Shown in pieces: positions 5,630 to 45,543 of a stretch of DNA of 64,000 nt. Made by a program: the position numbers and the translations under genes. The notes beneath the pieces are model-generated. The model had not been told where the DNA came from, searched no databases, and saw only the letters and a program-made list of their open reading frames with translations. Source of the stretch: an uncultured Clostridia bacterium (lineage in GTDB: Bacteria; Bacillota; Clostridia; Oscillospirales; JAAYOS01). The stretch lies in the NCBI GenBank assembly GCA_947631015.1, contig CANRJS010000006.1, positions 10,347-74,346 of the forward strand. The letters are read 5' to 3'. Position 1 is the stretch's first letter. The number at the start of each line of letters is the position of its first letter.

Positions 5630-7186
5630 ATGGTCGAGAGAATTATACATCAGGACGCGGAAAATTTCAATACCGTATCCGCCCCCGATGGAAAAGAAAA
5701 TAGAGATATATCGAGAAAGAACCGCGCGGCGGCACGTCCGCTCCGTGCCATCGGCATGAAGGTCCGTGCGGCGGCGGCAGTCGTCCGTGAGAAGGCCGTG
5801 TCCGTGGGTGAGGCACTTCGCCGCGCTGCGTTCCGCGCCGTCTCCGCCGTTTCCGGCAGCGGCCGGCGCGAGACTCTTCCGCGCACGGCGGGCGTCGCGG
5901 TGCTGTTCGCGGCGGTCGCGCTCGTCATCACCGGCGCGTTCGTCGGCGTCGGCCTCGAGGTGCTTGTGGACGGAGAGCCTGTCGGCTACGTCCGCGACCG
6001 CGAGCAGTTCAACGAAGTCATAGAGAGCGTCGAGGCAAAGGCCGGCGCAATACTCGGCAGGCCCTACTTCCTCGATACCGACGTCACCTATCGGCTCGAC
6101 CTCTTTGCAAAGGAAGGCGGCGAGCTTGACACCGCGTCGGTCGAACGCGCCCTCTTCGGCGACATCGACGAGATAAGCCAGCTCTACGTCATGACGGTGG
6201 ACGGAAAAATCATCGGCGCCAATGAGGACGGAGAAGCCCTCGAGAAGATGGCCGACGACGTGCTCGCCTCCGCCGAGGCGTCCGCGCGGGGCGCGGACAG
6301 CGTCGAGCTGCTCGAGAACATCGCCGTCACTCTCCAGTATACCGCAAGCGAGAACCGCCGGTCGCTTGACGAGATAAGCGACATCATTCACTCCAACTCG
6401 GTCGAGACCATGACCTACACCGTGCAGGAGGGCGACCTGTGGAGCGACATCGCCGCCCGCCACGGCATGAGCGAGGATACGCTCGCCGCGATGAACCCGG
6501 ACGTTGACCCCGCCGCGATACTCGCGGGCGACGAGATAGTTATAAGCGAGGCCGTCCCGCTGATGAGCGTCCGCACCACCGAGATAGTGAGCGAGGACGT
6601 TGCCATAGAGCACGGCACCCAGTACGTCTACTCCTCCTCCTATTGGTCGGGCGACAGCATCGTCACCAAGCGCGGCGTTGACGGACTCAGGCGCGTCACG
6701 AGCGAGATAGTGAGCATAGACGGCAAGGTTCGCGAGAAGAACGTCGTAAACGAAGAAGTCCTCACCGAGCCGGAGGATGAGATAATCACCCTCGGTACCC
6801 GCAGCTTCGTCCTCCCGTTCCCCGGCTACAAGATGATCTCGAGCTCCTTTGGCTGGCGCACCCTGCGCGGCAGGCCGAACAATCACACCGGGATAGACTT
6901 CGCTGGAGCTTACGGCGGCCGCGTTCAGGCCAGCTACTCCGGCACGGTCGTCTTTGCCGGCTGGAAGGGCAGCTACGGCAAATGCGTCATCATCGACCAC
7001 GGCTCCGGCTATCAGACCCTTTACGGACACAACAGCCGCCTCGCCGTCAGCGTCGGTGACTACGTCTCGCAGGGGCAGACAATAGCCTACGTCGGTATGA
7101 CCGGCAACACTACCGGTCCTCACTGCCACTTTGAGATCCGGATAAACGGCGTTCAGGTCAACCCGGCAAAGTACCTCTGGCGGTAA
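5630..7186 (+). CDS. LysM-domain M23 family metallopeptidase (peptidoglycan hydrolase)
   Basis: N-terminal TM segment. LysM: YTVQEGDLWSDIAARHGMSEDTLAAMNP. M23 motifs: HTGIDFAG...DHGSGYQTLYGHNS...GMTGNTTGPHCHFEIR. AAGGAG RBS. Confidence 0.9.
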   Translation: MVERIIHQDAENFNTVSAPDGKENRDISRKNRAAARPLRAIGMKVRAAAAVVREKAVSVGEALRRAAFRAVSAVSGSGRRETLPRTAGVAVLFAAVALVITGAFVGVGLEVLVDGEPVGYVRDREQFNEVIESVEAKAGAILGRPYFLDTDVTYRLDLFAKEGGELDTASVERALFGDIDEISQLYVMTVDGKIIGANEDGEALEKMADDVLASAEASARGADSVELLENIAVTLQYTASENRRSLDEISDIIHSNSVETMTYTVQEGDLWSDIAARHGMSEDTLAAMNPDVDPAAILAGDEIVISEAVPLMSVRTTEIVSEDVAIEHGTQYVYSSSYWSGDSIVTKRGVDGLRRVTSEIVSIDGKVREKNVVNEEVLTEPEDEIITLGTRSFVLPFPGYKMISSSFGWRTLRGRPNNHTGIDFAGAYGGRVQASYSGTVVFAGWKGSYGKCVIIDHGSGYQTLYGHNSRLAVSVGDYVSQGQTIAYVGMTGNTTGPHCHFEIRINGVQVNPAKYLWR

Positions 7187-7208
7187 AACAAACAGTCGCG
7201 GCGAATCG

Positions 7209-7520
7209 CAGGAGCGGGCTTTGCCCGCTCCTTTACCAATTCGCCGCGAGACCGTCGGACAGGGCAGAGCCCTGCCAACGGCGGACGCTCCGCTACGCGT
7301 CGATTTTCCGCCTTCGGCGGAAAATCGACGCACGCTTCGCGCAAAGAGTTTTTTCGTCCTCCGGTTCGTACAAGGTTGGACGTCGGCGCGGAGCGCCGAC
7401 GTCTGATGCGCCCTGTGAAAGGTATGATGCGGTATATGTTGTTGGGCGCATTGTACACGCCGCCGGAAAAAACGAATCTGACTTCATTTCGCGCCTGTCG
7501 GCGCGAAACTCTACGAGGTT
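7209..7520 (+). repeat. mosaic hairpin repeat, copy A (modules a-b-c-g-h)
   Basis: Shares GCGAGACCGTCGGACAGGGCnnnGCCCTGCCnACGGC, GGAAAATCGACGCACGC and GGAAAAAACnAAnnTGA..TTTCGCGCCnnnnGGCGCGAAACTCTACGAGGTT with copies at 12417, 37266 and (inverted) 59199. Confidence 0.85.
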
Positions 7521-7535
7521 GTTTAACCAATGAAT

Positions 7536-7568
7536 GGGCGGTGCAGACGCACCGCCCCGATTTTATTT
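7536..7568 (+). terminator. intrinsic terminator
   Basis: gggcggtgcagacgcaccgccc followed by cgattttattt. Confidence 0.6.
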
Positions 7569-8931: not shown

Positions 8932-8960
8932 GACAGACTTTCGCGGCTAATTGCGCCGTT

Positions 8961-9080
8961 CCGCGCCGGTTCGCGCGGTTAAATTCGGCGCACAGCGCCG
9001 AATTTGCGCAAGGGCAATTCATTTGCCCCGAGCATTTAAATCGGAAGGGTTCCCAAACGGTCTGCTGACCGTTTGGGATT
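8961..9080 (-). repeat. mosaic hairpin repeat, copy D (modules f-d, inverted orientation)
   Basis: The reverse complement aligns with 12500-12690 of copy B and with copy E (CCCTTCCGATT, TGCTCGGG..., CGCGCGAACnGGCGCGG). The stems differ by paired substitutions. Confidence 0.8.
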
Positions 9081-9708
9081 TCACTCCGAGTTTCTTCAGA
9101 AGGTGCAGCGCCATACCGCCGAGGGCGTTCCCCACGCTCATGACGGCGAGGTATCCGAGCGTGCGGAGGCTCCACGCGCCCGCGACGGTGAAGTAGTACA
9201 TATTCGCGACGCAGTGCTCAAACCCGCAGAAGATGAAGCCCATCACCCCGAGGAACAGCGCGACGTACTTCCCGAGCTCGTGCGGGTTGCGGGCGAAGTT
9301 TTCGACCGCTATGTATATCAGCATGTTGCAGAAAAAAGAGAGGATGAATATGCTGAGGATGCCGTCCCCGAGCTTCGCCGCCGCGACGGTCTCGGCGGCG
9401 GCGCGGAGCGCCGCGCCGTTCCGCGTGCAGAGCTCGAGCGTGCCCACAAGGAACGTGCCCGCGAGGTTCCCGAGCCATATCACTAGGAGCGACGGCAGGA
9501 ACTTCACTCCCCTGTCCGGCAGATAGCACGCCTTGCCGGTAAAGAGGTCGAAGCCGAAGACGCATATCGTGAAAAGTCCGACGGTGAAAAGAGCCGCGCC
9601 GAGTATCCGGCTCTCCGACATGAGGTATACCGTGCCGCCCACGGATATGCACAGCCCCGCGAGCACCGCGCGGAGGAAGGTCCTGAGATATTCTTTCATA
9701 TTTTTCAC
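9019..9708 (-). CDS. formate/nitrite transporter (FNT) family channel
   Basis: AGLCISVGGTVYL...LFTVGLFTICVFGFDLFTG...CGFEHCVANMYYF is FNT-like. The last ~18 codons run into repeat copy D. Confidence 0.75.
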   Translation of the reverse strand: MKNMKEYLRTFLRAVLAGLCISVGGTVYLMSESRILGAALFTVGLFTICVFGFDLFTGKACYLPDRGVKFLPSLLVIWLGNLAGTFLVGTLELCTRNGAALRAAAETVAAAKLGDGILSIFILSFFCNMLIYIAVENFARNPHELGKYVALFLGVMGFIFCGFEHCVANMYYFTVAGAWSLRTLGYLAVMSVGNALGGMALHLLKKLGVKSQTVSRPFGNPSDLNARGK

Positions 9709-10302: not shown

Positions 10303-12399
10303 ATGGCAAGCGTAAAAGACGCCGCGTCTGCGGCGGAGAAGGATATTTTTACTTCAAAGAGTGAACAAATGCTCATGCGAACGAACGAACACGCGGACGG
10401 TCACGCTCACGAGCACCACGACCACGGCGGCGCGTGCGAGCATTGCCATGATGACGGCTGCTCGTGCGGTCACGACCACGAACACCGGCACGGTCTCGCC
10501 ACACTGTTCAGGGGCCGCTCCTGCTCCTGCTGTGAAGAGGACGGGGACGACTGCTGTGACGGCGACGAGGACGAGGGTCCCGCGTGGGTGCTGTGGGTGA
10601 GGATGGCCGCAGCCGCGGCTCTCGGCGCTGTCGGTATGCTCGTCCCGATGCCGCAGCCCGCGTCGCTCGCGCTCTGCGTGCTCGCGTGGCTCGTCGCGTC
10701 CTATGACCTCGCGATAGGCATGGCTCGCGACATTAGGAAGGGCGAGATTTTCGGCGAGTGTATGCTGATGGTCGTCGCGAGCGTCGGCGCGCTCGCCATC
10801 GGCGAGACGCCGGAGGCGCTCGCCGTTGTGATACTCTACCAGATAGGCGAATGGCTCCAGGACCGCGCGGTCGACCGCTCGCGCTCGAGCATCTCCGCGA
10901 TGCTCGACCTGCGCCCCGAGACCGCGAACCTCCTCGACGCGCGGGGCGAGGTGAAGGTCGTCCCGCCCGAGCAGGTCGCCGTCGGCGATTTGGTACTCGT
11001 CCGCGCGGGCGAGCGCGTCCCGGTGGATGGCAGGGTCGTGAGCGGACGCGCGAGCTTTGACACCTCCTCCCTCACCGGCGAAAGCCTGCCGCTCGCCGCC
11101 GCCGAGGGGAGCGAGCTGCTCGCGGGCTTCATATCGACGGACGGCGCTGTGACGGTCGAGGCTCTGCACCCCGCAAGCGAGTCCGCCGCCGCGCGCCTTG
11201 AGGACCTGCTGCACGAGACAGAAAAGAACCGCGCGCCCACCGAAAGCTTCATACGGAGGTTTGCGAAGATCTACACCCCGGTGGTGATGGGGCTCGCGGT
11301 GCTCGTAGCCGTCGCAGGCGGCGTTGCCTCGGGAGACGCAAAAGAATGGATAAACCGCGCGCTCACCTTCCTTGTCGCCAGCTGTCCGTGCGCGCTGGTG
11401 CTGTCGATACCGCTCGGCTTCTTCGGCGGCATAGGCGGCGCGGCGAAGCGTGGCATAATGGTCAAGGGCGGCGCGGCGCTCGAGACGCTTGCGGACCGCT
11501 CGCTCTCGGTGGTATTCGACAAGACCGGCACCCTCACCGAGGGAAAATTCGAGGTGCGGGACGTCCTCCCCGAGGACGGTGTGACACGCGAGGAGCTTCT
11601 CCGCGCCGCCGCCTCTGCGGAGAGCCGTTCGGCACACCCGCTCGCGGCGGCGATAGTCGCCGCCGCAGGCGAAGTCCCACCGGCAAAGGATGTCTCCGAG
11701 CTCGCGGGCCTCGGCCTCATAGCCGAGACAGACGTCGGCACGGTCGCCGCCGGCAACGCCGCGCTGATGGAGCGCGCCGGCGTGGACGCGGCGCGGCTCA
11801 CCGAGACCGGCGCGACCGCCGTCCACGTCGCGCGGGACGGAAAGTACCTCGGCGTGATACTCCTCGGCGACCGTCCGAAGGACGGCGCGGCGGACGCGAT
11901 AGCGGCGCTGCGCGGCCTCGGAGTGAAGAACATAACAATGCTCACCGGCGACGCGGAGGCTGCCGCGCGCACGGCCGCGGAACAGCTCGGCATAACGTCG
12001 GTATGCGCGGGTCTCCTGCCGGAGGGCAAGGTCGCGGAGGTGGAAAAGCTCCGCAGCCGCGGCGGGAAGGTGCTGTTCGTCGGGGACGGCCTCAACGACG
12101 CGCCGGTGCTCGCGGCGGCGGACGTCTCGATAGCCATGGCGAACGGCGGGAACCGCATAAGCGTCGAGGCGGCGAACGCCGTCATCATGAGCGGCTCGCC
12201 CGCGCGCGTCACCGACGCTGTCTGCGTCGGGCGGCGCACCGTGGGCATCGTGAGAGAGAACACCGCGTTCGCGCTCGCGGCAAAGGGCGTCGTGCTTATT
12301 CTCGCGGCGCTGGGGCTTGCGCCGATGTGGGCGGCGGTGTTCGCGGACGTGGGCGTCTGCCTGCTCGCGGTGCTCAACGCCCTCCGGGCGCTGAAGTGA
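10303..12399 (+). CDS. heavy-metal translocating P1B-type ATPase (Cd/Zn/Co-type) with His/Cys/Asp-rich N-terminus
   Basis: SCPCALVLS (CPC), DKTGTLTEGKF, GDGLNDAPVLAAADV. The N-terminus is HADGHAHEHHDHGGACEHCHDDGCSCGHDHEHRHG...CSCCEEDGDDCCDGDEDEG. GAGGAG RBS. Confidence 0.9.
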   Translation: MASVKDAASAAEKDIFTSKSEQMLMRTNEHADGHAHEHHDHGGACEHCHDDGCSCGHDHEHRHGLATLFRGRSCSCCEEDGDDCCDGDEDEGPAWVLWVRMAAAAALGAVGMLVPMPQPASLALCVLAWLVASYDLAIGMARDIRKGEIFGECMLMVVASVGALAIGETPEALAVVILYQIGEWLQDRAVDRSRSSISAMLDLRPETANLLDARGEVKVVPPEQVAVGDLVLVRAGERVPVDGRVVSGRASFDTSSLTGESLPLAAAEGSELLAGFISTDGAVTVEALHPASESAAARLEDLLHETEKNRAPTESFIRRFAKIYTPVVMGLAVLVAVAGGVASGDAKEWINRALTFLVASCPCALVLSIPLGFFGGIGGAAKRGIMVKGGAALETLADRSLSVVFDKTGTLTEGKFEVRDVLPEDGVTREELLRAAASAESRSAHPLAAAIVAAAGEVPPAKDVSELAGLGLIAETDVGTVAAGNAALMERAGVDAARLTETGATAVHVARDGKYLGVILLGDRPKDGAADAIAALRGLGVKNITMLTGDAEAAARTAAEQLGITSVCAGLLPEGKVAEVEKLRSRGGKVLFVGDGLNDAPVLAAADVSIAMANGGNRISVEAANAVIMSGSPARVTDAVCVGRRTVGIVRENTAFALAAKGVVLILAALGLAPMWAAVFADVGVCLLAVLNALRALK

Positions 12400-12416
12400 A
12401 AAATTTCGCGGGAAAT

Positions 12417-12797
12417 CACGCGGGCTTCGCCCGCGACCTGTTTCCCGCGAGACCGTCGGACAGAGCGGAGCTCTGCCGACGGCAAGCGCTACGCTACGCA
12501 ATTCCCACGCGGTCGGTGACCGCGTGGGAGCCCTTCCGATTGAAATACTTCCCCCAAAGCGGCGTTTCACGCCGTTTGGGGACCCCTTTGGATTTGACAT
12601 GCTCGGGACGAGTGAATCGCCCCTGCGCGAAGTTGTCGGCAGAGCCGCCAACTTCCACCGCGCGAACAGGCGCGGTTGCCGCCTGCGGTGGAAAATCGAC
12701 GCACGCTGCGCGAGATGGGTTTTTCCCGACGTACACGCCACCGGAAAAAACAAATTGAACTTATTTCGCGCCTTCCGGCGCGAAACTCTACGAGGTT
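12417..12797 (+). repeat. mosaic hairpin repeat, copy B (longest: modules a-b-c-d-e-f-g-h)
   Basis: Contains every module seen in the other copies, in the same order. At least 8 consecutive short stem-loops. Confidence 0.85.
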
Positions 12798-12810
12798 TTC
12801 GAGAAGCTGT

Positions 12811-12843
12811 GAGCGGCACACTATGCTGTGCCGCTCAAATTTT
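12811..12843 (+). terminator. intrinsic terminator
   Basis: gagcggcacactatgctgtgccgctc followed by aaatttt. Confidence 0.6.
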
Positions 12844-13029
12844 GTCCTTAGATTTTCCTCCGGAAGAAAGCTCAAATTTCCCCTTGTAATTTCCGGCAGG
12901 CGTGGTATAATTTTATTTACGGCGTGCGTGAACATTTTGCACGGAACGCCGTCACGGGTCTGTCGCCCGAAATTGCACATATAACGGCGGACGCGGCGGG
13001 ACGCCCGCCCGCACACGGAGGACATTTTC

Positions 13030-15416: not shown

Positions 15417-15980
15417 ATGCTTCGTCCTCTCGAAAGAGACAGGTTCCGCGAGCTCTACCGCTGCCACATCGACCGCGACTTCCCGGCGGATGAGCGTCCT
15501 CCTGAGAGGATGTTCGCGGACGGGCTCGACCGGGGTCTCTACACCGGATACATATACGTCGAAGACGATGAGGAACGCGGCTACGCGTTCCTCATCGAGC
15601 GCTCGGGCGCGGTGATGCTCTTTCTCTTTGCCGTCTACGACGGGTACAGGGGTCGGGGCGTCGGGACGCGGTTCATGCGCGAGCTTCTGGAAATGATACG
15701 CGGCAGACGCTGTATCGTCCTCGAAGCAGAGCGGCCGGAGACCGCCGAAAACGCGGAGGAACGAACCGTCCGAGAGAAGCGGATAGGCTTCTACGAGCGC
15801 CTCGGCTACACGGCGTACCGCGAGATAGACTACGAGGTCTACCACGTCCCGATGTGGCTGATGGTGCACCCCCTTGGGAATCTGCTCCCGCCCGCGCGCA
15901 AAGTCGCGGACGCGATGCGCGGGTTCTACTCCTACGCGAAGGGACTTCCGCTCCGCACGAGCCTCTTTCGGGAAGAATAG
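15417..15980 (+). CDS. GNAT family N-acetyltransferase
   Basis: FAVYDGYRGRGVGTRFMRELLEMI is an acetyl-CoA-binding motif A of the R/Q-x-x-G-x-G/A type. Confidence 0.7.
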   Translation: MLRPLERDRFRELYRCHIDRDFPADERPPERMFADGLDRGLYTGYIYVEDDEERGYAFLIERSGAVMLFLFAVYDGYRGRGVGTRFMRELLEMIRGRRCIVLEAERPETAENAEERTVREKRIGFYERLGYTAYREIDYEVYHVPMWLMVHPLGNLLPPARKVADAMRGFYSYAKGLPLRTSLFREE

Positions 15981-16047
15981 AGCCGGCGCTGCTTGCGAAG
16001 AACGGCGCGAAAAAATCCGGAGCTCGCTTTATGGTGATATGGTAAGA

Positions 16048-16080
16048 AGATGGCAGCCACGAAAGTGGCTGCCATCTTTT
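16048..16080 (+). terminator. intrinsic terminator
   Basis: aagatggcagccacgaaagtggctgccatctttt. Confidence 0.7.
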
Positions 16081-16427
16081 GTGCTGTAATGAGGAGAGGC
16101 AGGAGCGGGGATTTATGCCGCAAAAGCCCCTGACGCAGCGACACGGAATACCCCCGTGCCGGGGTAACGGCGTATGCTGTTTCCCTGCCTCCCCGGCGAG
16201 GGGCAAGGGGAGGATCTCCCTTGCGGGTCCGGGCGGAGCCCGGGTCGCCGCCAAATACAGCCCGCTCTCACGGAAAATAGCGAATAGCCGAAACGGAAGC
16301 GGATGCAGCCCGCAACTGTTTGTTAAATATTACCAATTTACAAAGCAGTCCGAGATATGTATAATATACTGGGTACAGCAGAACCGAAAACTGTATCGGA
16401 TATAAAAATTAATAGGAGGATTTACAG

Positions 16428-18170
16428 ATGAAGAGAGCACTTACCTTTCTCCTCGCCGTGCTCATGATGGCCGGGCTTCTTGCCGGCTGCGGAAACGGAG
16501 GAGAAAACCCGAGCGCTTCCACGTCGACCGAGCCGTCGGCAGATCCGAGCTACGCGGCGCCGACCTCGACCGAGCCGGGAGACACCGAGATCGAACTCCC
16601 CCTCACCACGGACGAGGTGTCCTTTGACTACTGGGTTCCCAACAGCGCTTCGTTCGAGGACTACACGAGCTTCGACGACAACCTGTTCTATCAGTGGATG
16701 GAGGATCAGACCGGCGTTCACCTCAATTTCATCCACCCGAGCGTCGGCAGCGAGAACGAGGCCTTCTCGGCCATGATACTGTCTCGCGAATATCCGGACT
16801 TTATCAGCTTCTTCTCCAGCTATTACAGCGGCGGAGTTGACAAGGCGATAAACGACGGTGTTCTGCGCCGCCTCAACGAGCTGGTCGACCGGTACATGCC
16901 GAACTACAAGGCTACCGTCTACCGTGACGAGGATACCTTCATCCGCGCCATCTCGGACAGCGGCAACCTGTGGGGCGTGCATCACATCGTCGACTACGCC
17001 CAAGGCGCCTGGCTCGGACTCGGTGTACGCAGCGACTGGCTAGACAAGGCCGGTCTGACCATCGAGGATGCTTCGACCATCGACGGTATGGAGCGTGTTC
17101 TGACCGCGTTTAAGGATTATACCTACGGCAACCAGGGCGCGCTCTTCCTGTCCAACGGCGGTCTTAACGTCGGCGGCAGTATCTGCGGCTCGTACGGCAC
17201 CGGTTCGGTGCTCAGCGGCGGCTCTCGCATCCTGAACGTCGACGGCAAGGCGACCTACTCGCCGATGCAGCCCGGCTTCAAGGACTACGTTGCCAAGATG
17301 GCCGACTGGTACGCCAAGGGACTTATCAACACCAACTACATTGCCGACGCGAGCAGCTATGCCGCCGAGGATCGTTGGATAAACAGCGACATCGGACTTG
17401 CCGAGTTCGTCTACACCATGGCTGCGAACTTCGCGGACATTGCCGCGACAAGCGAGCTGTATCCGCAGCCCGACTTCCACATCTCGGCGCTTGCGACTCC
17501 GAAGCTGACCGCCGATATGGACGTTTCAAAGGACGTTCACATCCGTCAGACCCAGGAGCTTGTACGCACCAACTACTCGATGGGCATCACCACCGGCTGC
17601 ACCGACGATGAGATCGAGATTGCGTGCCGCTACTGGGACTATGTGTTCAGCCCGGACGGCGTCACCGCCTCCAACTGGGGCCCGTACGAGGGTGAGATGG
17701 GCGATGTGAACGCCACCTACTATGTCGACGAGACCGACGCCAACGGCGACGGACACATCGAGTGCTATCAGCCGTGGATGATGGAGAAGTACGGCAACGT
17801 CACCAACATCCAGTACAAGGTCGCCGCCTACATGGGACCGTCCTACTGCATCTGGAGCCGCGAGTGGTGCGCGCTGAGTGAGGAAGAGATCAACTACACC
17901 AAGATTTGGGACACCGCCGGAAACGACTGGATGTGGCCGGGCGGAGTTACCCTGACCGCCGACGAGGGCGCAGAGGCTTCTGGCATCCTGAGCGGCTGCA
18001 ACACCGCCGTCACCGAGTGGACCGCGCTGGTCATAACCGGACAGAAGTCGGCCGACACCTACGAGACCGAGCTTGTCCCGCAGCTTGAGTCGCTGAACAT
18101 CGCCCGCGCGGAAGAGTTGTATCAGAACGCTCTCGACCGCTATATGCAGCGTTCGCAGTACCTCCGGTAA
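16428..18170 (+). CDS. large extracellular solute-binding lipoprotein (ABC sugar-uptake type), no permease genes adjacent
   Basis: Lipobox LLAGCGNGG after a signal peptide; 580 aa. TAGGAGGA RBS. Promoter TTACAA-16-TATAAT at 16338-16365. Confidence 0.8.
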   Translation: MKRALTFLLAVLMMAGLLAGCGNGGENPSASTSTEPSADPSYAAPTSTEPGDTEIELPLTTDEVSFDYWVPNSASFEDYTSFDDNLFYQWMEDQTGVHLNFIHPSVGSENEAFSAMILSREYPDFISFFSSYYSGGVDKAINDGVLRRLNELVDRYMPNYKATVYRDEDTFIRAISDSGNLWGVHHIVDYAQGAWLGLGVRSDWLDKAGLTIEDASTIDGMERVLTAFKDYTYGNQGALFLSNGGLNVGGSICGSYGTGSVLSGGSRILNVDGKATYSPMQPGFKDYVAKMADWYAKGLINTNYIADASSYAAEDRWINSDIGLAEFVYTMAANFADIAATSELYPQPDFHISALATPKLTADMDVSKDVHIRQTQELVRTNYSMGITTGCTDDEIEIACRYWDYVFSPDGVTASNWGPYEGEMGDVNATYYVDETDANGDGHIECYQPWMMEKYGNVTNIQYKVAAYMGPSYCIWSREWCALSEEEINYTKIWDTAGNDWMWPGGVTLTADEGAEASGILSGCNTAVTEWTALVITGQKSADTYETELVPQLESLNIARAEELYQNALDRYMQRSQYLR

Positions 18171-18310
18171 GAAGTTCGTAAACAGGGTCAAATTAAAGGA
18201 CGACACCCGAAAGGGTGTCGTCCTTTTGAGTCTCTCAAAAAAGTCCTGACGAACGTTTTTGACAGGCCGAAATCGGGCGCTCACCAAAGTGAGCGCCCGA
18301 TTTACGCATT

Positions 18311-20776
18311 TCACTGTTTGTCAAACACCAGCCCGCCGTCCTGTGCCCGTGCAGTGACCTTATCGCCCGACTTCAGGCTGCCGTCGAGGATCTTCTCCGC
18401 GACGGCGTCCTCGACCTTCGAGCTTAATGCCCTCCGGAGCGGACGCGCGCCATAGGTCGGGTCAAAACCCTCGTCCGCTATGAGGTCGAGCGCGCTGTCG
18501 TCCGCCGTGAGCTCCACTCCGCTCGCGTCCTTTATACGCTTTGCGACGGTGTCAAACATTGAGCGCGCTATCTCGCGTATCGTCTCCTTGTCAAGGCGGT
18601 GGAAGACGATTATCTCGTCTATGCGGTTAAGGAATTCCGGGCGGAAAGCCTCGCGCAGGCGCTGCATGACGGTGGCGCGGATCTCCTCGTCGGTGGGGGC
18701 GTCGTCGGTTTCGCCGAAGCCGAGGCGCTTCCGCTCCATGAGGTCGTGCGCGCCGAGGTTCGAGGTCATGACGATTATCGTGTTCTTGAAGTCGACCACG
18801 CGGCCCTGCGAGTCGCTGAGGCGTCCGTCCTCAAGTATCTGGAGAAGGATGTTGAACACGTCGGGGTGAGCCTTCTCTATCTCGTCGAAGAGCACCACAG
18901 AGTACGGGGTGCGGCGCACCTTCTCGGTGAGCTGACCGCCCTCGTCAAAGCCGACATATCCCGGAGGCGAACCGATGAGCTTCGATACGGAGTGCTTTTC
19001 CATATACTCGCTCATATCCACGCGTATCATGGCGTTCTCGTCGCCGAAGAGCGCCTCCGCAAGCGCGCGGCAGAGCTCGGTCTTGCCGACGCCCGTCGGC
19101 CCAAGGAAGATAAAGCTGCCGGTCGGACGCTTCGGGTCCTTGAGACCGACGCGGCCGCGCCGTATCGCGCGTGACACCGCGCTCACCGCCTCGTCCTGAC
19201 CGATAACGCGCCGATGCAAGATGTCCTCCATGTGAAGCAGGCGCGACGCCTCGTCCTCGGTGAGGCGCGTGACCGGAACGCCCGTCCAGCCGCTCACGAC
19301 CGCCGCGACGTCCTCCTCCGACACCGAGCCGCGCTCACCGGAGCTCTTGCCCTGCCACTCCGCGCGCTCACGCTCAAGCTCCTCGCGGGTCTTCTTCTCC
19401 TCGTCGCGGAGCTGCGCCGCGAGCTCAAAGTCCTGGCTCGTCACCGCCGACTCCTTCTCGGCGGCGAGGCGGTCAAGCTTCTCCTCGAGCTCCTTGAGCG
19501 AATCCGGCGCCGTGGCGGACGCCATGCGCACGCGGCTGCACGCCTCGTCTATCAGGTCTATCGCCTTGTCCGGCAGACGGCGGTCGCCGATATAGCGCGC
19601 GCTCAGCTCGACGGCGGCCTTTATCGCCTCGTCCGGTATCTTCAGACCGTGGTGCGCCTCGTAGCGGTCGCGGAGCCCCTTCAGTATCTCGACGGTCTCC
19701 GCCTCGGTGGGCTCGCCCACCATGACCGGCTGGAAACGCCGCTCGAGCGCCGCGTCCTTCTCGATGTGCTTACGGTATTCGTCTATTGTCGTCGCGCCTA
19801 TCACCTGTATCTCGCCGCGCGAGAGAGCCGGTTTGAGGATGTTCGCGGCGTCGATAGCTCCCTCCGCCGCGCCCGCGCCGATGAGCGTGTGTATCTCGTC
19901 GATGAAAAGTATGACGTTGCCGGCTTCCTTCACCTCGTCTATTGCTCCCTTTATGCGCTCCTCGAACTCGCCGCGGTACTTCGTTCCGGCAAGCATACCG
20001 CCGAGGTCGAGCGAGAAGAGGCGCTTGTTTTTCAGCGTCTCGGGCACGTCGCCCGCGGCTATCCGCTCCGCAAGACCCTCCGCGACGGCGGTCTTGCCGA
20101 CGCCCGGCTCGCCTATCAGCACCGGGTTGTTCTTCGTGCGGCGGGAGAGGATGCGTATGACGCGCGCGGTCTCCTCGTCGCGCCCGATTATCGGGTCGAG
20201 CTTGCCCTCGCGGGCCATGTCGGTGAGGTCGCGGCCGAACTTGTTGAGCGTCTTTGTCGCGGCCGAGGACGGGTCGCTGCGCTGTGCGCGGCCTCCGCGC
20301 GGCTGTTCGCCGCCGCTCTGCTGCGCTTCGCCGCCGGAGGAGCCGGTCATCTGCTCGAGCGAGGAATAGAGTTGCTGCGGGTTCGCGCCGAGGCTCATAA
20401 GGAACTGTACCGCGACGCAGTCGCTCTCGCGGAGCAGCCCCATCAGAATGTGCTCGGTGCCGACGTAGCTGTGGCCGTGGCGCGCCGCCTCGGCAATGGC
20501 GAGCTCGATTATCCTCTTGCCGCGCGGCGTGAAGCCCTGTACCGGCGCGCCGGACTGTCCCTCGCCTATCGCCTCGACGATGGCGCTCTTCAGCGCGTCG
20601 CCGTCCACTCCGGCGCGGACGAGCGCCTTGGACGCTATGCCGTCCGTCTCGCGAATGAGTCCGAGCAGTATATGCTCCGAGCCGACGTAACCGTGGCCGA
20701 GCTCCTGCGCCGCCTCCTGCGCGAGCCTTATCGCGTTCTCGGCACGCTGTGTGAATCTGGAGTTGTAGGAAAACAT
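18311..20776 (-). CDS. clpC: ATP-dependent Clp protease ATP-binding subunit ClpC
   Basis: Duplicated Clp-N repeats ([14 protein letters not shown] / [14 protein letters not shown]), two Walker A motifs ([16 protein letters not shown]) and a UVR motif. Confidence 0.95.
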
Positions 20777-23208: not shown

Positions 23209-23259
23209 TTTCGCGGCTCGGTGCCGCACAGCGGCACAGCCTGGAAGTGCATCGGAAGA

Positions 23260-23290
23260 TGGGGGCGGATATAATCCGCCCCCGTTTATT
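23260..23290 (+). terminator. ferredoxin intrinsic terminator
   Basis: gggggcggatataatccgccccc followed by gtttatt. It lies inside the ORF-track N-terminal extension of the next gene. Confidence 0.7.
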
Positions 23291-23303
23291 ATTACGCTAT
23301 ACT

Positions 23304-24071
23304 ATGTTTGATAATAACGGTACTGCCGAAAAAGAAAACATTACGACGGAACTTCTGCCCGGAGGGATACGGCTTCTCCAGGACGGGCGTCACCTGCGCA
23401 TCGGCGCGGACGCCGTCCTGCTCGCGGCGTTCTGTCCTCCGGCGGAGAGGATATGCGAGCTCGGGTGCGGCGTCGGGAACGTCCTCCTCGCGCTCGCCGG
23501 GAGGCACCCTTCCGCGTCGCTTACCGGTGTCGAAATAGAGCCGGGCGCGGCGGAGCTCTGCCGCGAGAGCATACGGCTAAACTCGCTCGAAGGCCGCGTG
23601 CGCGTAGAAACCGGCGACCTGCGCGAGGCGGCGTCGCTCGGTCTCGCGTCGCGCTCGTTTGACCTCGTTCTGATGAACCCGCCGTATCTGCGCGCGGGGA
23701 CGGTGCGCGATATGCCCGACCCCGTGACAAACCTCGAGCGCGTGGACGGCACCGCGCCGCCGGAGGCGGTCGCGCGGGCGGCGGCATACCTCCTTCGCGC
23801 GCGCGGCTCGCTCTGCCTCGTACTGAGGGCGGGGCGGCTCGGGGACTACATCGCGGCGGTCTCGTCGGCGGGTCTCGCGCCCGCCGAGCTCTGCCTCGCG
23901 GCGCATGACGCCTCCGCGCCGCCGTCGCTCGCCCTTCTCCGTGCGGAGAAGGGATACTCGGGGGAGCTGCGGATACTCCCGACGTTCCGCACGGGCGGCG
24001 AGGAGTACCGCCGCGTCCTTAAGGGCGAGGGACTCCGCGAGGCGCTCGGCGTCCGCCGCAGGAATGACTGA
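23304..24071 (+). CDS. SAM-dependent methyltransferase, YabB/TrmN6-like
   Basis: ELGCGVGNV (motif I) and LMNPPY (N6-adenine/N-MTase motif IV). Precedes rsmI, as yabB precedes yabC in Bacillus. Start placed after the terminator; uncertain. Confidence 0.7.
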   Translation: MFDNNGTAEKENITTELLPGGIRLLQDGRHLRIGADAVLLAAFCPPAERICELGCGVGNVLLALAGRHPSASLTGVEIEPGAAELCRESIRLNSLEGRVRVETGDLREAASLGLASRSFDLVLMNPPYLRAGTVRDMPDPVTNLERVDGTAPPEAVARAAAYLLRARGSLCLVLRAGRLGDYIAAVSSAGLAPAELCLAAHDASAPPSLALLRAEKGYSGELRILPTFRTGGEEYRRVLKGEGLREALGVRRRND

Positions 24072-32547: not shown

Positions 32548-33048
32548 TCAGTTTACATATGTTTCGCCGCTGCCGGTCGTTATTATCGAACCGCCCAACT
32601 CAGTTATGTCGTTATACGCTTCGTTTTTCAGCAGAGAGGCAAGCTGCGCACATTCATCATCGCTCCTGATTTGCCGGTGAATGATTTCTTTGTACAGGCC
32701 AAATGTTACAGCTCTTAGCAGCTTGCCGGTCTTTACGTCATATATATCCTGCAAAACTCCGTCATTATACTCCTTGATATACCCCTTCTTTGAATCGAAA
32801 ACCGTTAGTCTCGCTTCGCCGTCTGTATCGTAATAGATAACTCTCACGACGGCGTTTTCAATCGAATCGCCGATATAGCTATCACGGTATGCCGAGGAGC
32901 CGACAGGCACCTCTTTCCAACCAACTTCAGGGCTTCCTATACTGCGAATGACGTCATTATTGTTCAGAGATATACAGCGTTCAACAACATAACATCCCAA
33001 CGCGACTGCGAACACCAACACAACAGATAAGATTATCCGTTTTCGCAT
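32548..33048 (-). CDS. hypothetical membrane-anchored or lipo-protein (low-GC island)
   Basis: 166 aa. N-terminal MRKRIILSVVLVFAVALGC (signal/anchor with Cys). No family recognised. Codon usage is AT-shifted relative to neighbours. Confidence 0.55.
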   Translation of the reverse strand: MRKRIILSVVLVFAVALGCYVVERCISLNNNDVIRSIGSPEVGWKEVPVGSSAYRDSYIGDSIENAVVRVIYYDTDGEARLTVFDSKKGYIKEYNDGVLQDIYDVKTGKLLRAVTFGLYKEIIHRQIRSDDECAQLASLLKNEAYNDITELGGSIITTGSGETYVN

Positions 33049-33113
33049 ATTCGGGCGCTCCTTTGTGAAAGACTAACCGATACAAAGTATAGGTACAGTG
33101 CAGAGCAAACAAT

Positions 33114-34241
33114 TTATTTGCCAAACTCTCCTTTGCCTGCAATCCATTCTCCGTAGGCATTAATTACAGAGTCATAATTGTTTGCCGCCGTGTTCACAAA
33201 AGACGCATAGTTATCCCTTCTGGTTTCTTCATACGGCCATGGCACTTCTGTTGCGATCCAGCAAGGCTGATAGTCCCGACCATATCCATATTCAAATGTT
33301 CCCCACATCGAATCGGTGGTGACATTTACCTCGGCATGCTCTTTAGTCGAGTCGTATATTCCGCTTTCAACTGCAAACCAGTATTCCATATCGCTGGATG
33401 TAACAAATAATATATTGTACAGGAGTTCCCCCGCCGAGGATAGCCAACCAAAACCAGCTAGCATAGCTTCAACAGTGGATAGAGGCCACGAAACAGCGGC
33501 TGAAATGGCCGCAACTGTCGTGCCGACTAAAAACTTGCTGAAATCTTTATGTATGTATGCATAATAATCTTGTGTCTCATACACGTTAACAACTCGGTTA
33601 ACTCCAAGCGAAGAAATATATTTCGTAGAGCTTTTAACTTTTTTCGCATTGTAACTCGGGAAAGTATCTTCCACAGGGTAAATTGCCTCTTTTGTAGTGT
33701 CGTCGATAGATGCTGCGGCAAGACTATTCTTTGGCTTTTCCTCTATTATTGTGGTATTACCAATCGTGTTAACGGTAATCCCGTTAATTTTGCTGAGGTC
33801 TCCCCCATTTTCAACTGCATCTCTTATTTGTAAACGAATCTCCTCGTCCATTTCATACGTTTCAACTTCTGGTATTGGCATGGATTCAACAAGGCCATTT
33901 AAATTTGAGATTATTAAATATCCATCTGTTGTAGTGTTGCGAACTTGACCGTCAGGGAGGTATTCGTCTATAAACCTAACTCCTTTGAGAGTGTAGTCCA
34001 CATAAACGATCTCAGTATAAGGAGACTTATACCCTTCGTTAAGCACGGCTTCCTTGGGTATTGAATAGTTAGCTTCTTCGATTTCGATGGGTTGTACCTC
34101 GCCGGAAGTAACGACCATGTTACGCCCAGATTTTGTCTGTACTGGCGTGGTCTTTTCTGCCGCAAATGCCGAGATATTGATAACGCCAAGCATCATCACA
34201 ACAGTCAGGACGAACGATATGATTCTTTTAAACTTAGACAT
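33114..34241 (-). CDS. hypothetical secreted protein (low-GC island)
   Basis: 375 aa. Signal peptide MSKFKRIISFVLTVVMMLGVINISAFAAEK. AGGAGAAG RBS. No recognisable domain. Hydrophobic segment LVGTTVAAISAAVSWPLSTVEAMLAGFGWLSSAG. Confidence 0.6.
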   Translation of the reverse strand: MSKFKRIISFVLTVVMMLGVINISAFAAEKTTPVQTKSGRNMVVTSGEVQPIEIEEANYSIPKEAVLNEGYKSPYTEIVYVDYTLKGVRFIDEYLPDGQVRNTTTDGYLIISNLNGLVESMPIPEVETYEMDEEIRLQIRDAVENGGDLSKINGITVNTIGNTTIIEEKPKNSLAAASIDDTTKEAIYPVEDTFPSYNAKKVKSSTKYISSLGVNRVVNVYETQDYYAYIHKDFSKFLVGTTVAAISAAVSWPLSTVEAMLAGFGWLSSAGELLYNILFVTSSDMEYWFAVESGIYDSTKEHAEVNVTTDSMWGTFEYGYGRDYQPCWIATEVPWPYEETRRDNYASFVNTAANNYDSVINAYGEWIAGKGEFGK

Positions 34242-34578: not shown

Positions 34579-37137
34579 TCAGCAGTGCTTTGTGAAGCAA
34601 CTCGAACGGAGTATCACGCGCATTATCGCGGCGGCGCTCTTCTCGACCATGGCGCGGGTCGGGGTTATCGTGACCTTCGCGAGACCCTTCGAGACGACCG
34701 GCTCACCCGCCTCGACGGCCTTCTGTATCCCGTCGGACACCGGCTTGCCGCCCGGCTGTATCATGTCGTTGCCTGCCCACATCGAGATCATCGGGGTGCT
34801 TATCCCTCCGCCCCAGTCGGTCATGACAAAACCGTCGAAGCCCCACTCGTCGCGGAGTATCGCGGTGTTGAGTTCGTAGTTGTCGGCATTCGGGACGCCG
34901 TTGGTGTCGTTATAGGAGGTCATGAGAGCCTTCGGCTTCTCGGTCTTGACGCAGTACTCGAACGCGGCAAGGTATATCTCGCGCATTGCGCGCTCGGAGA
35001 TGGTGTTGGAGGAATTGCCGCGCATGAACTCCTGACTGTTGCCGGCGAAGTGCTTTATCGTAACTCCGCCGCCCTCCGCCTGAACGCCCTTCGTCATCGC
35101 GGCGGCGCAGCGTCCGGCGACGACCGGGTCCTCGGCGTAATACTCGAAGTTGCGGCCGCAGAGCGGGCTGCGGTGGATGTTCATGCCGGGAGCGAGCCAC
35201 AGGTCGACCTTGTACTCCTCCATCTCGATACCGGCGGCGTGTCCGACGGCCTCAAGCACCTCATCGTCCCATGACGATGCGAGCAGGGAGCCGGTCGGGA
35301 ACGCGGTGCAGTACTGGTGACGCACGACCTCGCCGTTCTCCTTCACGTCGCGGGTGATGCGGACACCTGCGGGGCCGTCGCACAGGACGAGCGGCGGGAG
35401 CCTGTACTTGTCCCACATATCGGGGCTTTGACCGGCCTCGCCGGGAACCTCGAACTTGAGCTTCTGCTCGTTGCCGCGGCTGACGAGGGCGGCAAACACG
35501 TCGTCATCGTCGTCGTCGTCCTTTCCGTCCTTCTTTTCGGGCTTCGGCGGGGTCGGCATGACGCCCTCAAAGCCGGAGAAGTCCATGCCCTGTCCGCAGA
35601 CGAAGCGGCAGAGATCCTCGAGGTCCATGGTGGCCGCGAGGTCTTCGACGGTCGCCTTGCCCTCGGCGACGTCCCCCAGGGTGATGCCCGGCTTTGCCGT
35701 GCCCGGGACGTAATCATACTTGCCGTACTCGACGGTCTCGCACTTTATCGCCTTCGGGCAGACGGTGAGAACCTTCGCCGCAGCCTTCTCGCCCTCCTCG
35801 CCCTCGTAGGAGATCGGGGTCTCGCCCTTCTTTGTGAGCTTCTCGTAGCCCTCGGGAGTGGTGCCGAGGAGGTTCTTCAGCTTGCGGGTCGTTATCTCGC
35901 TCTCGACCTCAAGAGCGGCGGCGATATGGGTGCTGCGGCTCGAATTGCCGACGCGCACGTAGTACTTGCCGGGCTCGAGGATGTAGGAAGCGGTCGCCTC
36001 GTCATAGCTCGCGAGGTTCGCCACGGGGATGCGGACGGTGACGAACTCCTCCCCGCCGACGCCGAGCACGCCGGTCTTCTTGTAGCCCTTGAGCTCCTGA
36101 TACGGCTTCTCGAGCTTGCCGTCCGGCGCGGAGACGTAGACCTGAACGACCTCGCGGACTGAGTGATGGCGGCACTTGTTCTCGACCTTCGCCGTGACGA
36201 CGATGTCCGCGCCCTCGAGCGCGACGTCGACGCAGGTTATCTCGGGATGGCCGTAGCTGAGACCGAAGCCGAACGGGAAGAGAACCTTCTTGCCGTAGGT
36301 GTCATAGTAGCGGTAGCCGACATAGATGTCGTCATGATACGGGACGTCGGTCTGGTCGGTCTCACCGCCCATGAAGCGGTTGAAGGTCTTGTTGCCGTTC
36401 GGGATGAGCTTGCTGTAATAGTCCTTCGTCGGATCGTCGTCAAAGCTCAGCGGCCATGTGTCGGTGAGCTTGCCGCTGACCGGCACGGCGCCGGTGAGTA
36501 TGTCCGCGACGGCGCAGCCGCCCTCCTGCCCGGGAAGCCCGATGAACAGGACGGAGGTGAGCTTATCCATCTTCGCGGTGATGTCCATGTAGCCCGGGAC
36601 GTTCAGCAGGAGGATGACCTTGCCGAACTCGGCGGCGACGGCGTCGATAAGCGCGCTCTCGTCGGCGGTGAGCATTATCGTGCCGGGCTTCGCCTCCATG
36701 TCCTGACCCTCGCCCGCGATGCGGCTGACGACCACGACGGCGGCGTCGTTCTTTCCGGCAGCGGTCTTTATCACCGACGGGTCTACCGGCGTCTCGTCGT
36801 TGTAGTTCTTCTGCTCGCCGGGGCCGGCAAAGAAGCCCTGCTTGACTATGCCGTGGGTCTCCGCCCACTTGCGGTAGACGGCGGCGACGTCCTCGTCGAC
36901 CTTGAGGCTCTCACAGCCCTCGAGACCCTCGAGGATGTTCACGCTCTTGAGGTTGTTGACCTCGCCCGAGCCGGTGCCGCCCTTGATGGTGTGGATCTGG
37001 CCGATGCCGAACACCGCGAGCTTCGTCCCGTCGTGCAGAGGGAGCAGGTGCCCCTCGTTTTTGAGAAGGACCATGCCCTCGGCGGCGGTCCTGCGCGCGA
37101 CGGCGGCGCTTGCGGCCATGCGTGCCTTGAGTTCCAT
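34579..37137 (-). CDS. glycoside hydrolase family 3 beta-glucosidase/xylosidase-like, permuted domain order
   Basis: N-terminal alpha/beta-sandwich domain (MVLLKNEGHLLPL, VVVVSRIAGEGQD), FPFGFGLSY, then a C-terminal TIM-barrel domain (GPAGVRI, KHFAGNSQE, SYN..NG, GFVMTDWGGG). Start at MELKARM with a GGGAGAG RBS. The ORF-track extension to 37470 reads through repeat copy C. Confidence 0.9.
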   Translation of the reverse strand: MELKARMAASAAVARRTAAEGMVLLKNEGHLLPLHDGTKLAVFGIGQIHTIKGGTGSGEVNNLKSVNILEGLEGCESLKVDEDVAAVYRKWAETHGIVKQGFFAGPGEQKNYNDETPVDPSVIKTAAGKNDAAVVVVSRIAGEGQDMEAKPGTIMLTADESALIDAVAAEFGKVILLLNVPGYMDITAKMDKLTSVLFIGLPGQEGGCAVADILTGAVPVSGKLTDTWPLSFDDDPTKDYYSKLIPNGNKTFNRFMGGETDQTDVPYHDDIYVGYRYYDTYGKKVLFPFGFGLSYGHPEITCVDVALEGADIVVTAKVENKCRHHSVREVVQVYVSAPDGKLEKPYQELKGYKKTGVLGVGGEEFVTVRIPVANLASYDEATASYILEPGKYYVRVGNSSRSTHIAAALEVESEITTRKLKNLLGTTPEGYEKLTKKGETPISYEGEEGEKAAAKVLTVCPKAIKCETVEYGKYDYVPGTAKPGITLGDVAEGKATVEDLAATMDLEDLCRFVCGQGMDFSGFEGVMPTPPKPEKKDGKDDDDDDDVFAALVSRGNEQKLKFEVPGEAGQSPDMWDKYRLPPLVLCDGPAGVRITRDVKENGEVVRHQYCTAFPTGSLLASSWDDEVLEAVGHAAGIEMEEYKVDLWLAPGMNIHRSPLCGRNFEYYAEDPVVAGRCAAAMTKGVQAEGGGVTIKHFAGNSQEFMRGNSSNTISERAMREIYLAAFEYCVKTEKPKALMTSYNDTNGVPNADNYELNTAILRDEWGFDGFVMTDWGGGISTPMISMWAGNDMIQPGGKPVSDGIQKAVEAGEPVVSKGLAKVTITPTRAMVEKSAAAIMRVILRSSCFTKHC

Positions 37138-37265
37138 AACTGTGCTCTCCCTTCGAAAACAGCCGTCGCGGGAAGCGCCCGCGTCCGACCTTAAAATTAT
37201 ATATGTATTATACCATATATTACAGGCTCCTGCAATATCCTGTTTGTGCAAAATATGTATATCTC

Positions 37266-37437
37266 GCAGGAAACCGCGCGGGCTTCGCCTGCGCGGTTTC
37301 CTGCGAGACCGTCGGACAGGGCAAAGCCCTGCCGACGGCAAGCGCTCCGCGAGATGAGTTTTTTCCGACGCGCATGTCGTCGGAAAAAACGAAATTGAAT
37401 TTGTTTCGCCGTCTGCGGCGGCGAAACTCTGCGAGGC
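37266..37437 (+). repeat. mosaic hairpin repeat, copy C (modules a-b-g-h)
   Basis: gcaggaaaccgcgcgggcttcgcctgcgcggtttcctgc GAGACCGTCGGACAGGGCaaaGCCCTGCCGACGGC ... GGAAAAAACGAAATTGA..TTTCGCCGtctgCGGCGGCGAAACTCTGCGAGG. Confidence 0.85.
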
Positions 37438-37521
37438 TTTTGAAGCTGAGACGTCAGAGCGGGCGGCCATACGGCCGCCCGCGTTGACGTGTATTACGAT
37501 TTGTTTAATATACGGTAAATA

Positions 37522-44396: not shown

Positions 44397-44483
44397 TGGT
44401 GCGCGAGGCGGGACTTGAACCCGCACGTCCGAATGAACACTAGAACCTGAATCTAGCGAGTCTACCAATTCCACCACTCGCGC
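44397..44483 (-). tRNA. tRNA-Leu (anticodon CAG)
   Basis: Reverse complement: gcgcgagtggtggaattggtagactcgctagattCAGgttctagtgttcattcggacgtgcgggttcaagtcccgcctcgcgcacca. Cloverleaf with long variable arm and encoded CCA. Confidence 0.95.
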
Positions 44484-44519
44484 TTATTGTGTTCGAGCCG
44501 CCGAATCGGCGGCTCGATG

Positions 44520-44603
44520 TGGTGCGGATGACGGGACTTGAACCCGTACGCCATAGACACACGCCCCTCAAACGTGCCTGTCTACCAGTTCCAGCACATC
44601 CGC
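44520..44603 (-). tRNA. tRNA-Leu (anticodon GAG)
   Basis: Reverse complement: gcggatgtgctggaactggtagacaggcacgtttGAGgggcgtgtgtctatggcgtacgggttcaagtcccgtcatccgcacca. Long variable arm and encoded CCA. Confidence 0.95.
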
Positions 44604-44660
44604 ATATTCTCCTCATATCCTGAGGCGCATTAGTTATTATAATTGCAATTCGGCGGATTG

Positions 44661-45110: not shown

Positions 45111-45304
45111 CGTTTCACCTCCGCCGCCTTGCCGTGTTCCCTGCGTCAATTATAGCACGGATCCGGCGCGGACGCTATATCCAACACAAAAACCGCTCCC
45201 TCACGCAGAAAAAATTTTTCTCCGAATTTCCCGAAATCTCTTGACAAAAAGGCGTTTATGCCGTATACTTTATGAACGTCGGGTTTGACCGTTCCCGATA
45301 ATTT

Positions 45305-45380
<76 letters not shown>

Positions 45381-45383
45381 CAT

Positions 45384-45460
45384 GGCCCGGTAGAACAGTT
45401 GGTTAGTTCGCCAGCCTGTCACGCTGGAGGTCGTGGGTTCGAGTCCCATCCGGGTCGCCA
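45384..45460 (+). tRNA. tRNA-Asp (anticodon GTC)
   Basis: ggcccggtagaacagttggttagttcgccagcctGTCacgctggaggtcgtgggttcgagtcccatccgggtcgcca. Confidence 0.95.
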
Positions 45461-45463
45461 TTC

Positions 45464-45539
<76 letters not shown>

Positions 45540-45543
45540 ATGT

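Follow-up and report, generated by a model that had tools for sequence, protein, structure and literature searches.

The stretch of DNA considered here, referred to as the window, comprises 64,000 nt of the genome of an uncultured, spore-forming member of the Clostridia (about 62% GC) and carries, among others, the genes for a germination protease and the dnaN-recF-remA-gyrBA genes. Interspersed between its genes are copies of a repeat family built from chained hairpins. The family is an undescribed one of a known type, namely the composite interspersed hairpin repeats that resemble bacterial interspersed mosaic elements (BIME), BOX elements and miniature inverted-repeat transposable elements (MITE), and it does not constitute a new type of system. 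At least five copies had been proposed in an earlier note made from the sequence alone. Comparison of each copy with the whole window by blastn, complemented by repeat finding, recovered these five places and no others; pairwise segments are 75-97% identical, and either approach gave the same families. The limits were refined by reading of the sequence, by which copy E became about 130 nt longer than originally given. The resulting coordinates are collected in the table.

Table. Copies of the repeat family, adjoining terminators and an unoccupied site in the window
Feature	Position	Strand	Description
Copy A	7195-7535	+	Composite, beginning 9 nt past the stop of the M23/LysM peptidase gene (5630-7186); made up of 5′ stem-loop, b hairpin, m9, nested ~100-nt module (about 7362-7452), HP3 remnant, HP4, 3′ tail CTCTACGAGGTTGTTTAACCAATGAAT
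Intrinsic terminator	7536-7567	+	Directly downstream of copy A; found at empty sites too
Copy D	8939-9081	-	d-e-f-g unit (8961-9078) and inverted 5′-terminus remnant (8939-8952)
Copy B	12404-12809	+	Most complete copy, beginning 5 nt past the TGA that ends the P-type ATPase gene (10303-12399); 5′ unit, b hairpin, nested d-e-f-g unit with partial d-e duplication, m9, HP3, HP4, 3′ tail
Intrinsic terminator	12810-12845	+	Downstream of copy B
Empty site	23209-23304	+	Ferredoxin stop codon, terminator GGGGGCGGAT-ATA-ATCCGCCCCC, next gene
Copy C	37263-37449	+	Basic unit, ~187 nt; between two minus-strand GH3 genes, antisense to both; HP1, b hairpin, CGAGATG, HP3, spacer, HP4, CTCTGCGAGGCTTTTGAAGCTGA
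Copy E	59163-59515	-	Begins 2 nt beyond the TAA that closes the dCMP deaminase gene (59518-60006) and extends up to a terminator-like hairpin (59132-59162); split 5′ stem holding a ~100-nt module, b hairpin, d-e-f-g unit, short 3′ hairpin

Copies A, B, D and E each lie between the stop codon of a gene running in the same direction and a terminator hairpin. The hairpins after copies D and E were missed by the terminator consensus scan and are visible by eye; no promoter-like site was flagged inside any of these four copies. Copy D is located between the gene for a formate/nitrite transporter and the terminator shared with S20, and it is here that the claim of a purely intergenic position for all copies fails. 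The last 20 codons and the stop codon (9019-9081) of the transporter open reading frame (ORF; 9019-9708, minus strand) are encoded by copy D. Its usual stop has been lost, the window reading GTGAAA where the relative L122 reads GCGTGA, with the TGA just before the element (L numbers denote loci outside the window), and the called gene amounts to 226 amino acids against 206-209 in relatives. As read from these sequences, the family has already rewritten the predicted C-terminus of one protein by a tail of 20 residues.

The two GH3 genes around copy C (34579-37137 and 37522-40335, both on the minus strand) are tandem paralogues, as seen from DNA repeats at 3408-nt spacing with 73-85% identity. 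Copy C lies on the upstream side of the downstream GH3 gene, about 125 nt from its start.

Module structure and ends of the repeats

Comparison of 20-odd copies allowed the elements to be divided into separable units. The basic unit, for which copy C is representative, measures about 190 nt and consists of four hairpins, HP1 to HP4. HP1 is a variable long hairpin, TCGCGG...CCGCGA, around a small hairpin; HP2 corresponds to module b and is followed by the motif CGAGAWG; HP3 has a T-rich/A-rich stem with the conserved loop CGACGYRCAYGYCG and a GATTTnAA spacer after it; and HP4, TTTCGCGCC...GGCGCGAAA, precedes the conserved 3′ tail CTCTGCGAGGC-TTTTT-aCAAGCTGA. Other units are nested or arranged in tandem inside the copies. 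One of them, the d-e-f-g unit of about 118 nt, stands alone in copy D, occurs twice in tandem in L022 and is nested in copies B and E and in L031, L078 and L019, in either orientation relative to the basic element; the others are two further modules of about 100 nt, located at differing positions among copies. The stem variants quoted in the earlier note for modules b (GGACAGGGC/GGACAGAGC), d (CCCACGCGG/CCCAAACGG) and f (GAAGTTGGCGGC/AAATTCGGCGC) are all present in the sequence. The strict order of modules a to h does not hold, the ~100-nt module that occupies 7379-7452 in copy A being 5′ of module b in copy E, nor does strict colinearity, the tail of copy D being an inverted 5′ terminus.

The ends of the elements are related to each other. 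The sequence TCGCGGCAAATCGCG at the 5′ end agrees with the reverse complement of the 3′ end, TCGCAGAGTTTCGCG, at 10 of 15 positions and with equal spacing, which amounts to short terminal inverted repeats of the form TCGCrG-N5-TCGCG. Candidate terminal sequences of the family are TTTCGCGG... and ...CTCTGCGAGGCTTTTTACAAGCTGA; as a genome-wide signal, the 8-mer TTTCGCGG is not enriched (11 occurrences found, 6.9 expected).

Presence, absence and distribution

Loci syntenic to parts of the window were fetched by look-up of exact proteins and share about 99, 96, 94, 92, 89 and 71% nucleotide identity with it. Among them, copy A is confined to strains at 99% identity; relatives at 89-96% lack it at the orthologous site, the empty site reading TAA-aacaaac-aaatatcgtttg-terminator. 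Copy E is identical in six contigs of the same species and absent from a relative with an 87%-identical deaminase as well as from more distant relatives. The site of copy B behind the ATPase gene is filled in all members of the clade, with differing module content in L089, L031, L101 and L122, and at the transporter/S20 site of copy D the relatives vary in content or show the reverse orientation. No copy was found in about 35 kb of the relative at about 71% identity. The ferredoxin site carries no element in the window, and relatives have three different ones there (L136/L138, L143 and L140). Among these fillers is a composite of 465 nt, on either side of which 10 bp of the right arm of the terminator are repeated; the 10-bp target duplication in L136 is ATCCGCCCCC.

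A new composite was met at a further site. In L120 (11672-12290), from a strain at about 99% identity, a 580-amino acid ORF and its upstream region, present in the window (15980-18311), are absent, and the gap between the acetyltransferase and clpC genes holds a composite repeat of 480 nt (11716-12198) with a perfect 14-nt terminal inverted repeat, AAAGCCTCGCAGAG...CTCTGCGAGGCTTT. Composites of 330-465 nt arrive at a site whole, in a single step. The sites adjoin hairpins, being located between stop codon and terminator, just after a terminator, or inside the loop of another hairpin. The comparison of presence and absence that the earlier note had recommended shows the copies to be polymorphic between close strains, and the family is active on the time-scale of strain divergence. 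The statement of that note that terminal inverted repeats and target duplications were absent is wrong in part, as short inverted termini and some duplications of target sequence were met.

The non-coding region (15986-16425) that precedes the 580-amino acid ORF deserves separate mention. It is 96% identical to L118, where the genes are only about 89% identical; it is unrepeated and without an Rfam match, and may be a conserved leader or regulatory RNA. The ORF itself has no Pfam match.

The family is not confined to the window, relatives and phage contigs carrying it as well. A scan of GTDB, with one genome per species, for an 18-nt module-b pattern returned five real loci in three metagenome-assembled genomes of rabbit-gut "uncultured Clostridia"; the other matches were mostly chance matches in high-GC taxa, and L017, L052 and L080 were discarded as not real. 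Two pattern scans of JGI metagenomes gave nothing or only 20-27-nt chance matches, and copy B had no blastn match among plasmid and phage records. Scans of viral contigs with the 3′ tail and with an HP2 motif turned up true relatives of the basic unit, all in IMG/VR contigs with a GC content of 58-66%. With GCGAAACTCTGCGAGGD, only chance or coding matches were obtained from viral contigs, and L147 and L153 were likewise dismissed as chance matches. In L149 and L151 the unit is flanked on both sides by copies of a 24-nt terminator hairpin.

Paired substitutions and the strand question

In the alignment of the d-e-f-g unit (8 sequences, 37 pairs), 95.8% of the cells are paired and double changes occur in 15 pairs, values that were reached in none of 500 shuffles, while controls with slid pairing are paired to only about 40%. 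The alignment of the 5′ unit (9 sequences, 30 pairs) has 99.6% of its cells paired, with double changes in 8 pairs and 16 cells, and HP3, compared across phage and chromosomal copies, shows double changes in 11 of 13 pairs. Some of the aligned copies (B, L031 and L122) are orthologous, so that these counts are partly non-independent. In the d-e-f-g and 5′ units taken together, 51 cells with a double change stand against 5 with a one-sided change, and the stems are nearly always perfectly Watson-Crick paired; many of the double changes are transversions that cannot pass through G·U. That the stems are kept paired by double substitutions, as the earlier note had claimed, is therefore borne out far beyond the controls.

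The covariation is real, yet its pattern points to DNA and not to one RNA strand. G·U pairs make up 112 of 1831 pairs in the sense and 111 of 1825 in the antisense direction, and 12 of 301 and 16 of 315, respectively, in the conserved 3′ domain. Copy B folds equally well on both strands (z-scores of -7.0 and -6.35), so that neither G·U content nor fold stability favours the transcribed strand. Loops are moreover flipped to their reverse complement on identical stems, AAA against TTT in four of them. Such a flip is also seen at an orthologous terminator, the one after the M23 peptidase gene, the loop of which (7545-7548) reads AGAC in the window; three relatives have AGAT there, and a strain at 99% identity has ATCT (sites L118, L122, L125 and L120), ATCT being the exact reverse complement of AGAT. 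Loop inversion on identical stems is a signature of events at the DNA level. Of the suggestion that structure as such is selected, be it in RNA or in cruciform or single-stranded DNA, the genuinely paired stems are upheld; selection on a single RNA strand is favoured neither by the G·U pairs nor by folding.

Compensatory changes are described as common in REPINs, which are DNA elements (PMC3116915). Template-switching between inverted repeats is reported to homogenise their arms and to invert their spacers (PMC8604942), and the combination of arm homogenisation and spacer inversion seen here is the pattern given there for template-switching during replication. It is proposed that the "compensatory" changes could be accounted for by homogenisation of stem arms through recombination and template-switching.

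From these observations it might be argued that no dedicated enzyme is needed and that the family spreads and is reshuffled by template-switching in replication, by break-induced copying and by homologous recombination among the hairpin-rich sequences found at terminators, the terminator hairpins serving as both donors and acceptors. This would agree with the homogenised arms and inverted loops (PMC8604942) and with junctions that fall at short shared motifs, such as the 16-nt GCGCGAACCGGCGCGG flanking an extra block in L089 and GCGCGAA at several joints. It would also agree with the irregular length of the duplications (10 bp, 24 nt), with the replacement instead of duplication of sequence at the site of copy A, and with the fall of identity to the window across copy B between assemblies. 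In L089/L090 (12374-12492, compared with 12676-12768 of the window) identity is 99.98% up to the middle of copy B, where a different module block sets in, and beyond that block it is only 98.2% and 95.6%; the break is either a recombination joint within the repeat or a chimera of metagenome assembly. On the other hand, the termini are conserved from the chromosome to diverse phage contigs, and conservation over such distances suggests recognition by a protein; in addition, whole composites are found at unrelated loci without common flanking homology. A purely enzyme-free spread is regarded as quite unlikely.

A role as RNA has to be considered in its own right. The basic unit would then be selected because it is transcribed, acting in 3′ untranslated regions (UTRs) or between cistrons as stabiliser of mRNA, processing site or partial terminator; the upstream gene would thereby yield more product or be uncoupled from the genes that follow it, with the spread to new sites being secondary. 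Such functions are known from the RNase III sites between genes of phage T7 and from repetitive extragenic palindromic (REP) hairpins in 3′ UTRs of Escherichia coli. By the author's count, the element is sense to the gene on its side of the terminator at 12 of 14 independent chromosomal sites (one-sided binomial about 0.006), and all ten phage copies with examined flanking ORFs run in the direction of those genes. Copies located upstream of terminators must be transcribed. In the phages they follow the genes for major head proteins of two PHROG families and for a third, capsid-like protein; two direct copies of the basic unit bracket the capsid (major-head) gene in L148 and in L166 (both IMG/VR), the pair in L166 being nearly identical. 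One further phage copy follows the gene that precedes the tail assembly chaperone, and the copy in L144 lies between the next ORF and a gene judged, by reading of the sequence, to encode a putative large terminase. Finally, unpaired segments, i.e., the 3′ tail and the loop of HP3, are conserved while the stems co-vary.

Against selection of an RNA speak the lack of strand asymmetry in G·U pairs and folding energy, the near absence of one-sided intermediates from G-C to G-U, and the freedom with which loops are inverted. Orthologous genes of close relatives manage without the element, module content at one locus varies between strains at about 99% identity, and two copies are antisense. At the gathering threshold, Rfam finds only five tRNAs over the whole window and matches no copy; permissive scans of copies A to E with riboswitch, ribozyme, ωRNA/HEARO and small RNA families brought nothing near threshold. 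Selection of the basic unit as a functional RNA module is the main alternative to mobile DNA, if a rather improbable one.

Both ideas could be combined. The ~190-nt unit might be a portable cassette for gene ends in gut Clostridia and their phages, inserted by an enzyme at terminator hairpins with duplication of the hairpin and thereafter acting as a module that stabilises or processes mRNA. The bracketing of major-capsid genes in unrelated phages and the sense position after housekeeping genes would thereby be explained. If true, the cassette would represent a mobile element kept for a cis-acting RNA function, with a new hairpin-targeting mechanism of insertion; the probability of this scenario is considered low.

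Probable mobility and relation to known repeats

On balance, the copies probably belong to a family of non-autonomous mobile DNA that targets hairpins and terminators, is reshaped by recombination and template-switching, and is passively transcribed in 3′ UTRs. Insertion would start with a trans-acting enzyme that recognises the hairpin ends of the element, probably as single-stranded or cruciform DNA. This enzyme, which like the chemistry of insertion we infer from the behaviour of the elements, would insert the element at hairpin or terminator targets, whereby one arm of the target or the entire target hairpin would sometimes be duplicated. Recombination and replication template-switching among similar palindromes would subsequently shuffle the modules, homogenise the stem arms and flip the loops. 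Passive co-transcription would make the elements part of long, structured 3′ UTRs, and stabilisation or processing of the mRNA upstream may be an incidental effect. As terminators are polar, their targeting would yield the observed sense bias without any RNA function.

Several points weigh against such mobile DNA. Judged by the Pfam labels of the called genes, neither the window nor about 0.3 Mb of related loci has a gene for a transposase or for one of the type of REP-associated tyrosine transposases (RAYT). Only two cases of target duplication were met, differing in length, and at a palindromic target, direct and inverted duplications are hard to distinguish; the one clean pair of a filled and an empty site for copy A shows no duplication, about 12 nt of the empty site being replaced instead. 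Some differences between strains, e.g., in copy B, are possibly chimeras of metagenome assembly at repeats. The prevalence of sense copies on the chromosome and in phages, the conserved unpaired motifs, and the position of copies around major-head genes of unrelated phages fit an RNA function as well.

Among known repeats, the REP/BIME sequences of Enterobacteria and the RAYT-mobilised REPINs of Pseudomonas are likewise interspersed, GC-rich palindromes arranged in mosaics; they, too, occur mostly downstream of genes and between convergent genes, with compensatory changes that keep the hairpins (PMC3116915, PMC2817692, PMC3733652), and lack classic long terminal inverted repeats. The proposed likeness to REP/BIME-type elements, modular and without being a known one, is upheld, neither Rfam nor plasmid or phage records giving a match. 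The present elements of 190-480 nt differ in that several unrelated hairpins follow each other in a mostly fixed order with conserved linkers, in place of one palindrome in alternating orientation; no RAYT gene accompanies them in the loci named above; and their hosts are a Clostridia clade and phages, Firmicutes being unmentioned in the survey of REPs (PMC3733652).

Assignment to REP sequences proper was examined and rejected. A REP unit is a palindrome of 20-40 bp, one end of which bears a conserved GTAG or CGTC tag that stays unpaired (PMC3733652). Here, the reverse-complemented 3′ end reads CCTCGTAGAG (with GTAG) only in copies A and B and CCTCGCAGAG (with GCAG) in the nine others listed, while the CGTC of module b and of the ~100-nt module is base-paired within a stem. 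Nor is there a single unit alternating with defined linkers as in REP/BIME, the hairpins within a copy differing in sequence. By analogy with REP/BIME, for which such roles have been proposed, the hairpin arrays might be DNA sites of benefit to the host, for example for binding of gyrase or nucleoid proteins or as buffers of supercoiling. The analogy lies in the clustering of GC-rich palindromic units at 3′ ends of genes and between convergent genes, which is reported for REPs (PMC3733652, PMC2817692). Presence or absence between close strains, the narrow host range and the occurrence in phages argue against a housekeeping role, and sites of this kind are regarded as very improbable.

A further comparison is that with the BOX element of Streptococcus pneumoniae (boxA-boxB(n)-boxC), together with the neisserial intergenic mosaic elements (NIME) and the Correia elements. 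These are equally composite, the ends being conserved and the internal modules varying in number; they are highly base-paired, co-transcribed with their neighbours, restricted to groups of species and regarded as parasitic (PMC3049150). In contrast to them, the present family is GC-rich and not AT-rich, shares no sequence similarity detected by blastn with plasmid and phage records, and has internal modules that are separable, occurring alone or nested in either orientation; neither a known insertion sequence (IS) nor a partner IS with matching ends was identified, the search of the window for the termini returning only the repeats and chance matches. With MITEs it has in common that the elements are small, non-coding, structured and polymorphic between strains; in short terminal inverted repeats and occasional target duplication the likeness is partial. 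The usual terminal repeats are short and imperfect (10/15), and the duplications vary from none at all to 10 bp or an entire 24-nt hairpin. The sequence, moreover, is not AT-rich, and insertion is at hairpins or terminators, not at a fixed short sequence.

Hairpins and terminators also guide the palindrome-associated derivatives of IS200/IS605, the insertion of IS1397 or IS110-type elements into REPs, and the class C group II introns that insert after terminators. These elements share with the present family the dependence of ends or target on hairpins, the lack of regular target duplication and the insertion beside terminators. An IS200/IS605-type element was nevertheless rejected. A constant 5′ target of 4-5 nt is missing, the 5′ flanks differing and being merely A-rich, and orientation follows the neighbouring gene and not the replication strand, as copies A, B and C are on the plus and D and E on the minus strand under a monotonic GC skew. 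No intron or ribozyme match was found in Rfam, and no transposase domain among the Pfam-scanned ORFs and called genes.

Elsewhere in the window, the shorter hairpin chains pointed out at about 16.1, 25.0 and 44.1 kb proved to be single-copy and to belong to no repeat family in the data. A region of lower GC content (44397-52000, 52-56%) beside two tRNA-Leu genes and genes for tRNA-Trp, -Asp and -Thr encodes a tyrosine integrase (49758-50954), HTH regulators and a DUF6291 protein; contig L106, which matches it, has a RelB/YafQ toxin-antitoxin pair in addition. The region probably represents an integrated element. An ORF at 54411-55835 contains an imperfect tandem repeat (55349-55586, minus strand) with a period of 6/12/18 nt (GTGCTCATG/GTGGTCATG...), which would encode a stretch rich in His, Asp and Glu; the matching contigs L107 and L109 have a Ni_insertion (LarC-type) domain in this ORF. 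Two ORFs without Pfam domain lie in a patch of 50% GC (32548-34241, minus strand) and have three matches among 5.8 billion clustered proteins, the best non-self match being 39% identical.

Small interspersed repeats have been well studied in Proteobacteria, streptococci and neisseriae and, to our knowledge, little in gut Clostridia. In the organisms that carry the present family, 3′ UTRs are lengthened by 150-480 nt of very stable structure, and the family is shared with phages, in which copies bracket the most highly expressed structural genes. Its copies coincide with breaks and possible recombination joints in metagenome assemblies and are usable as markers for strain typing. For the discovery of RNA motifs the family is a caution, as strong covariation alone does not show an RNA, and it offers a test case for whether "compensatory" changes in the stems of DNA palindromes need selection or follow from template-switching. 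Beyond this, it gives a lead to an activity that would insert DNA at hairpins.

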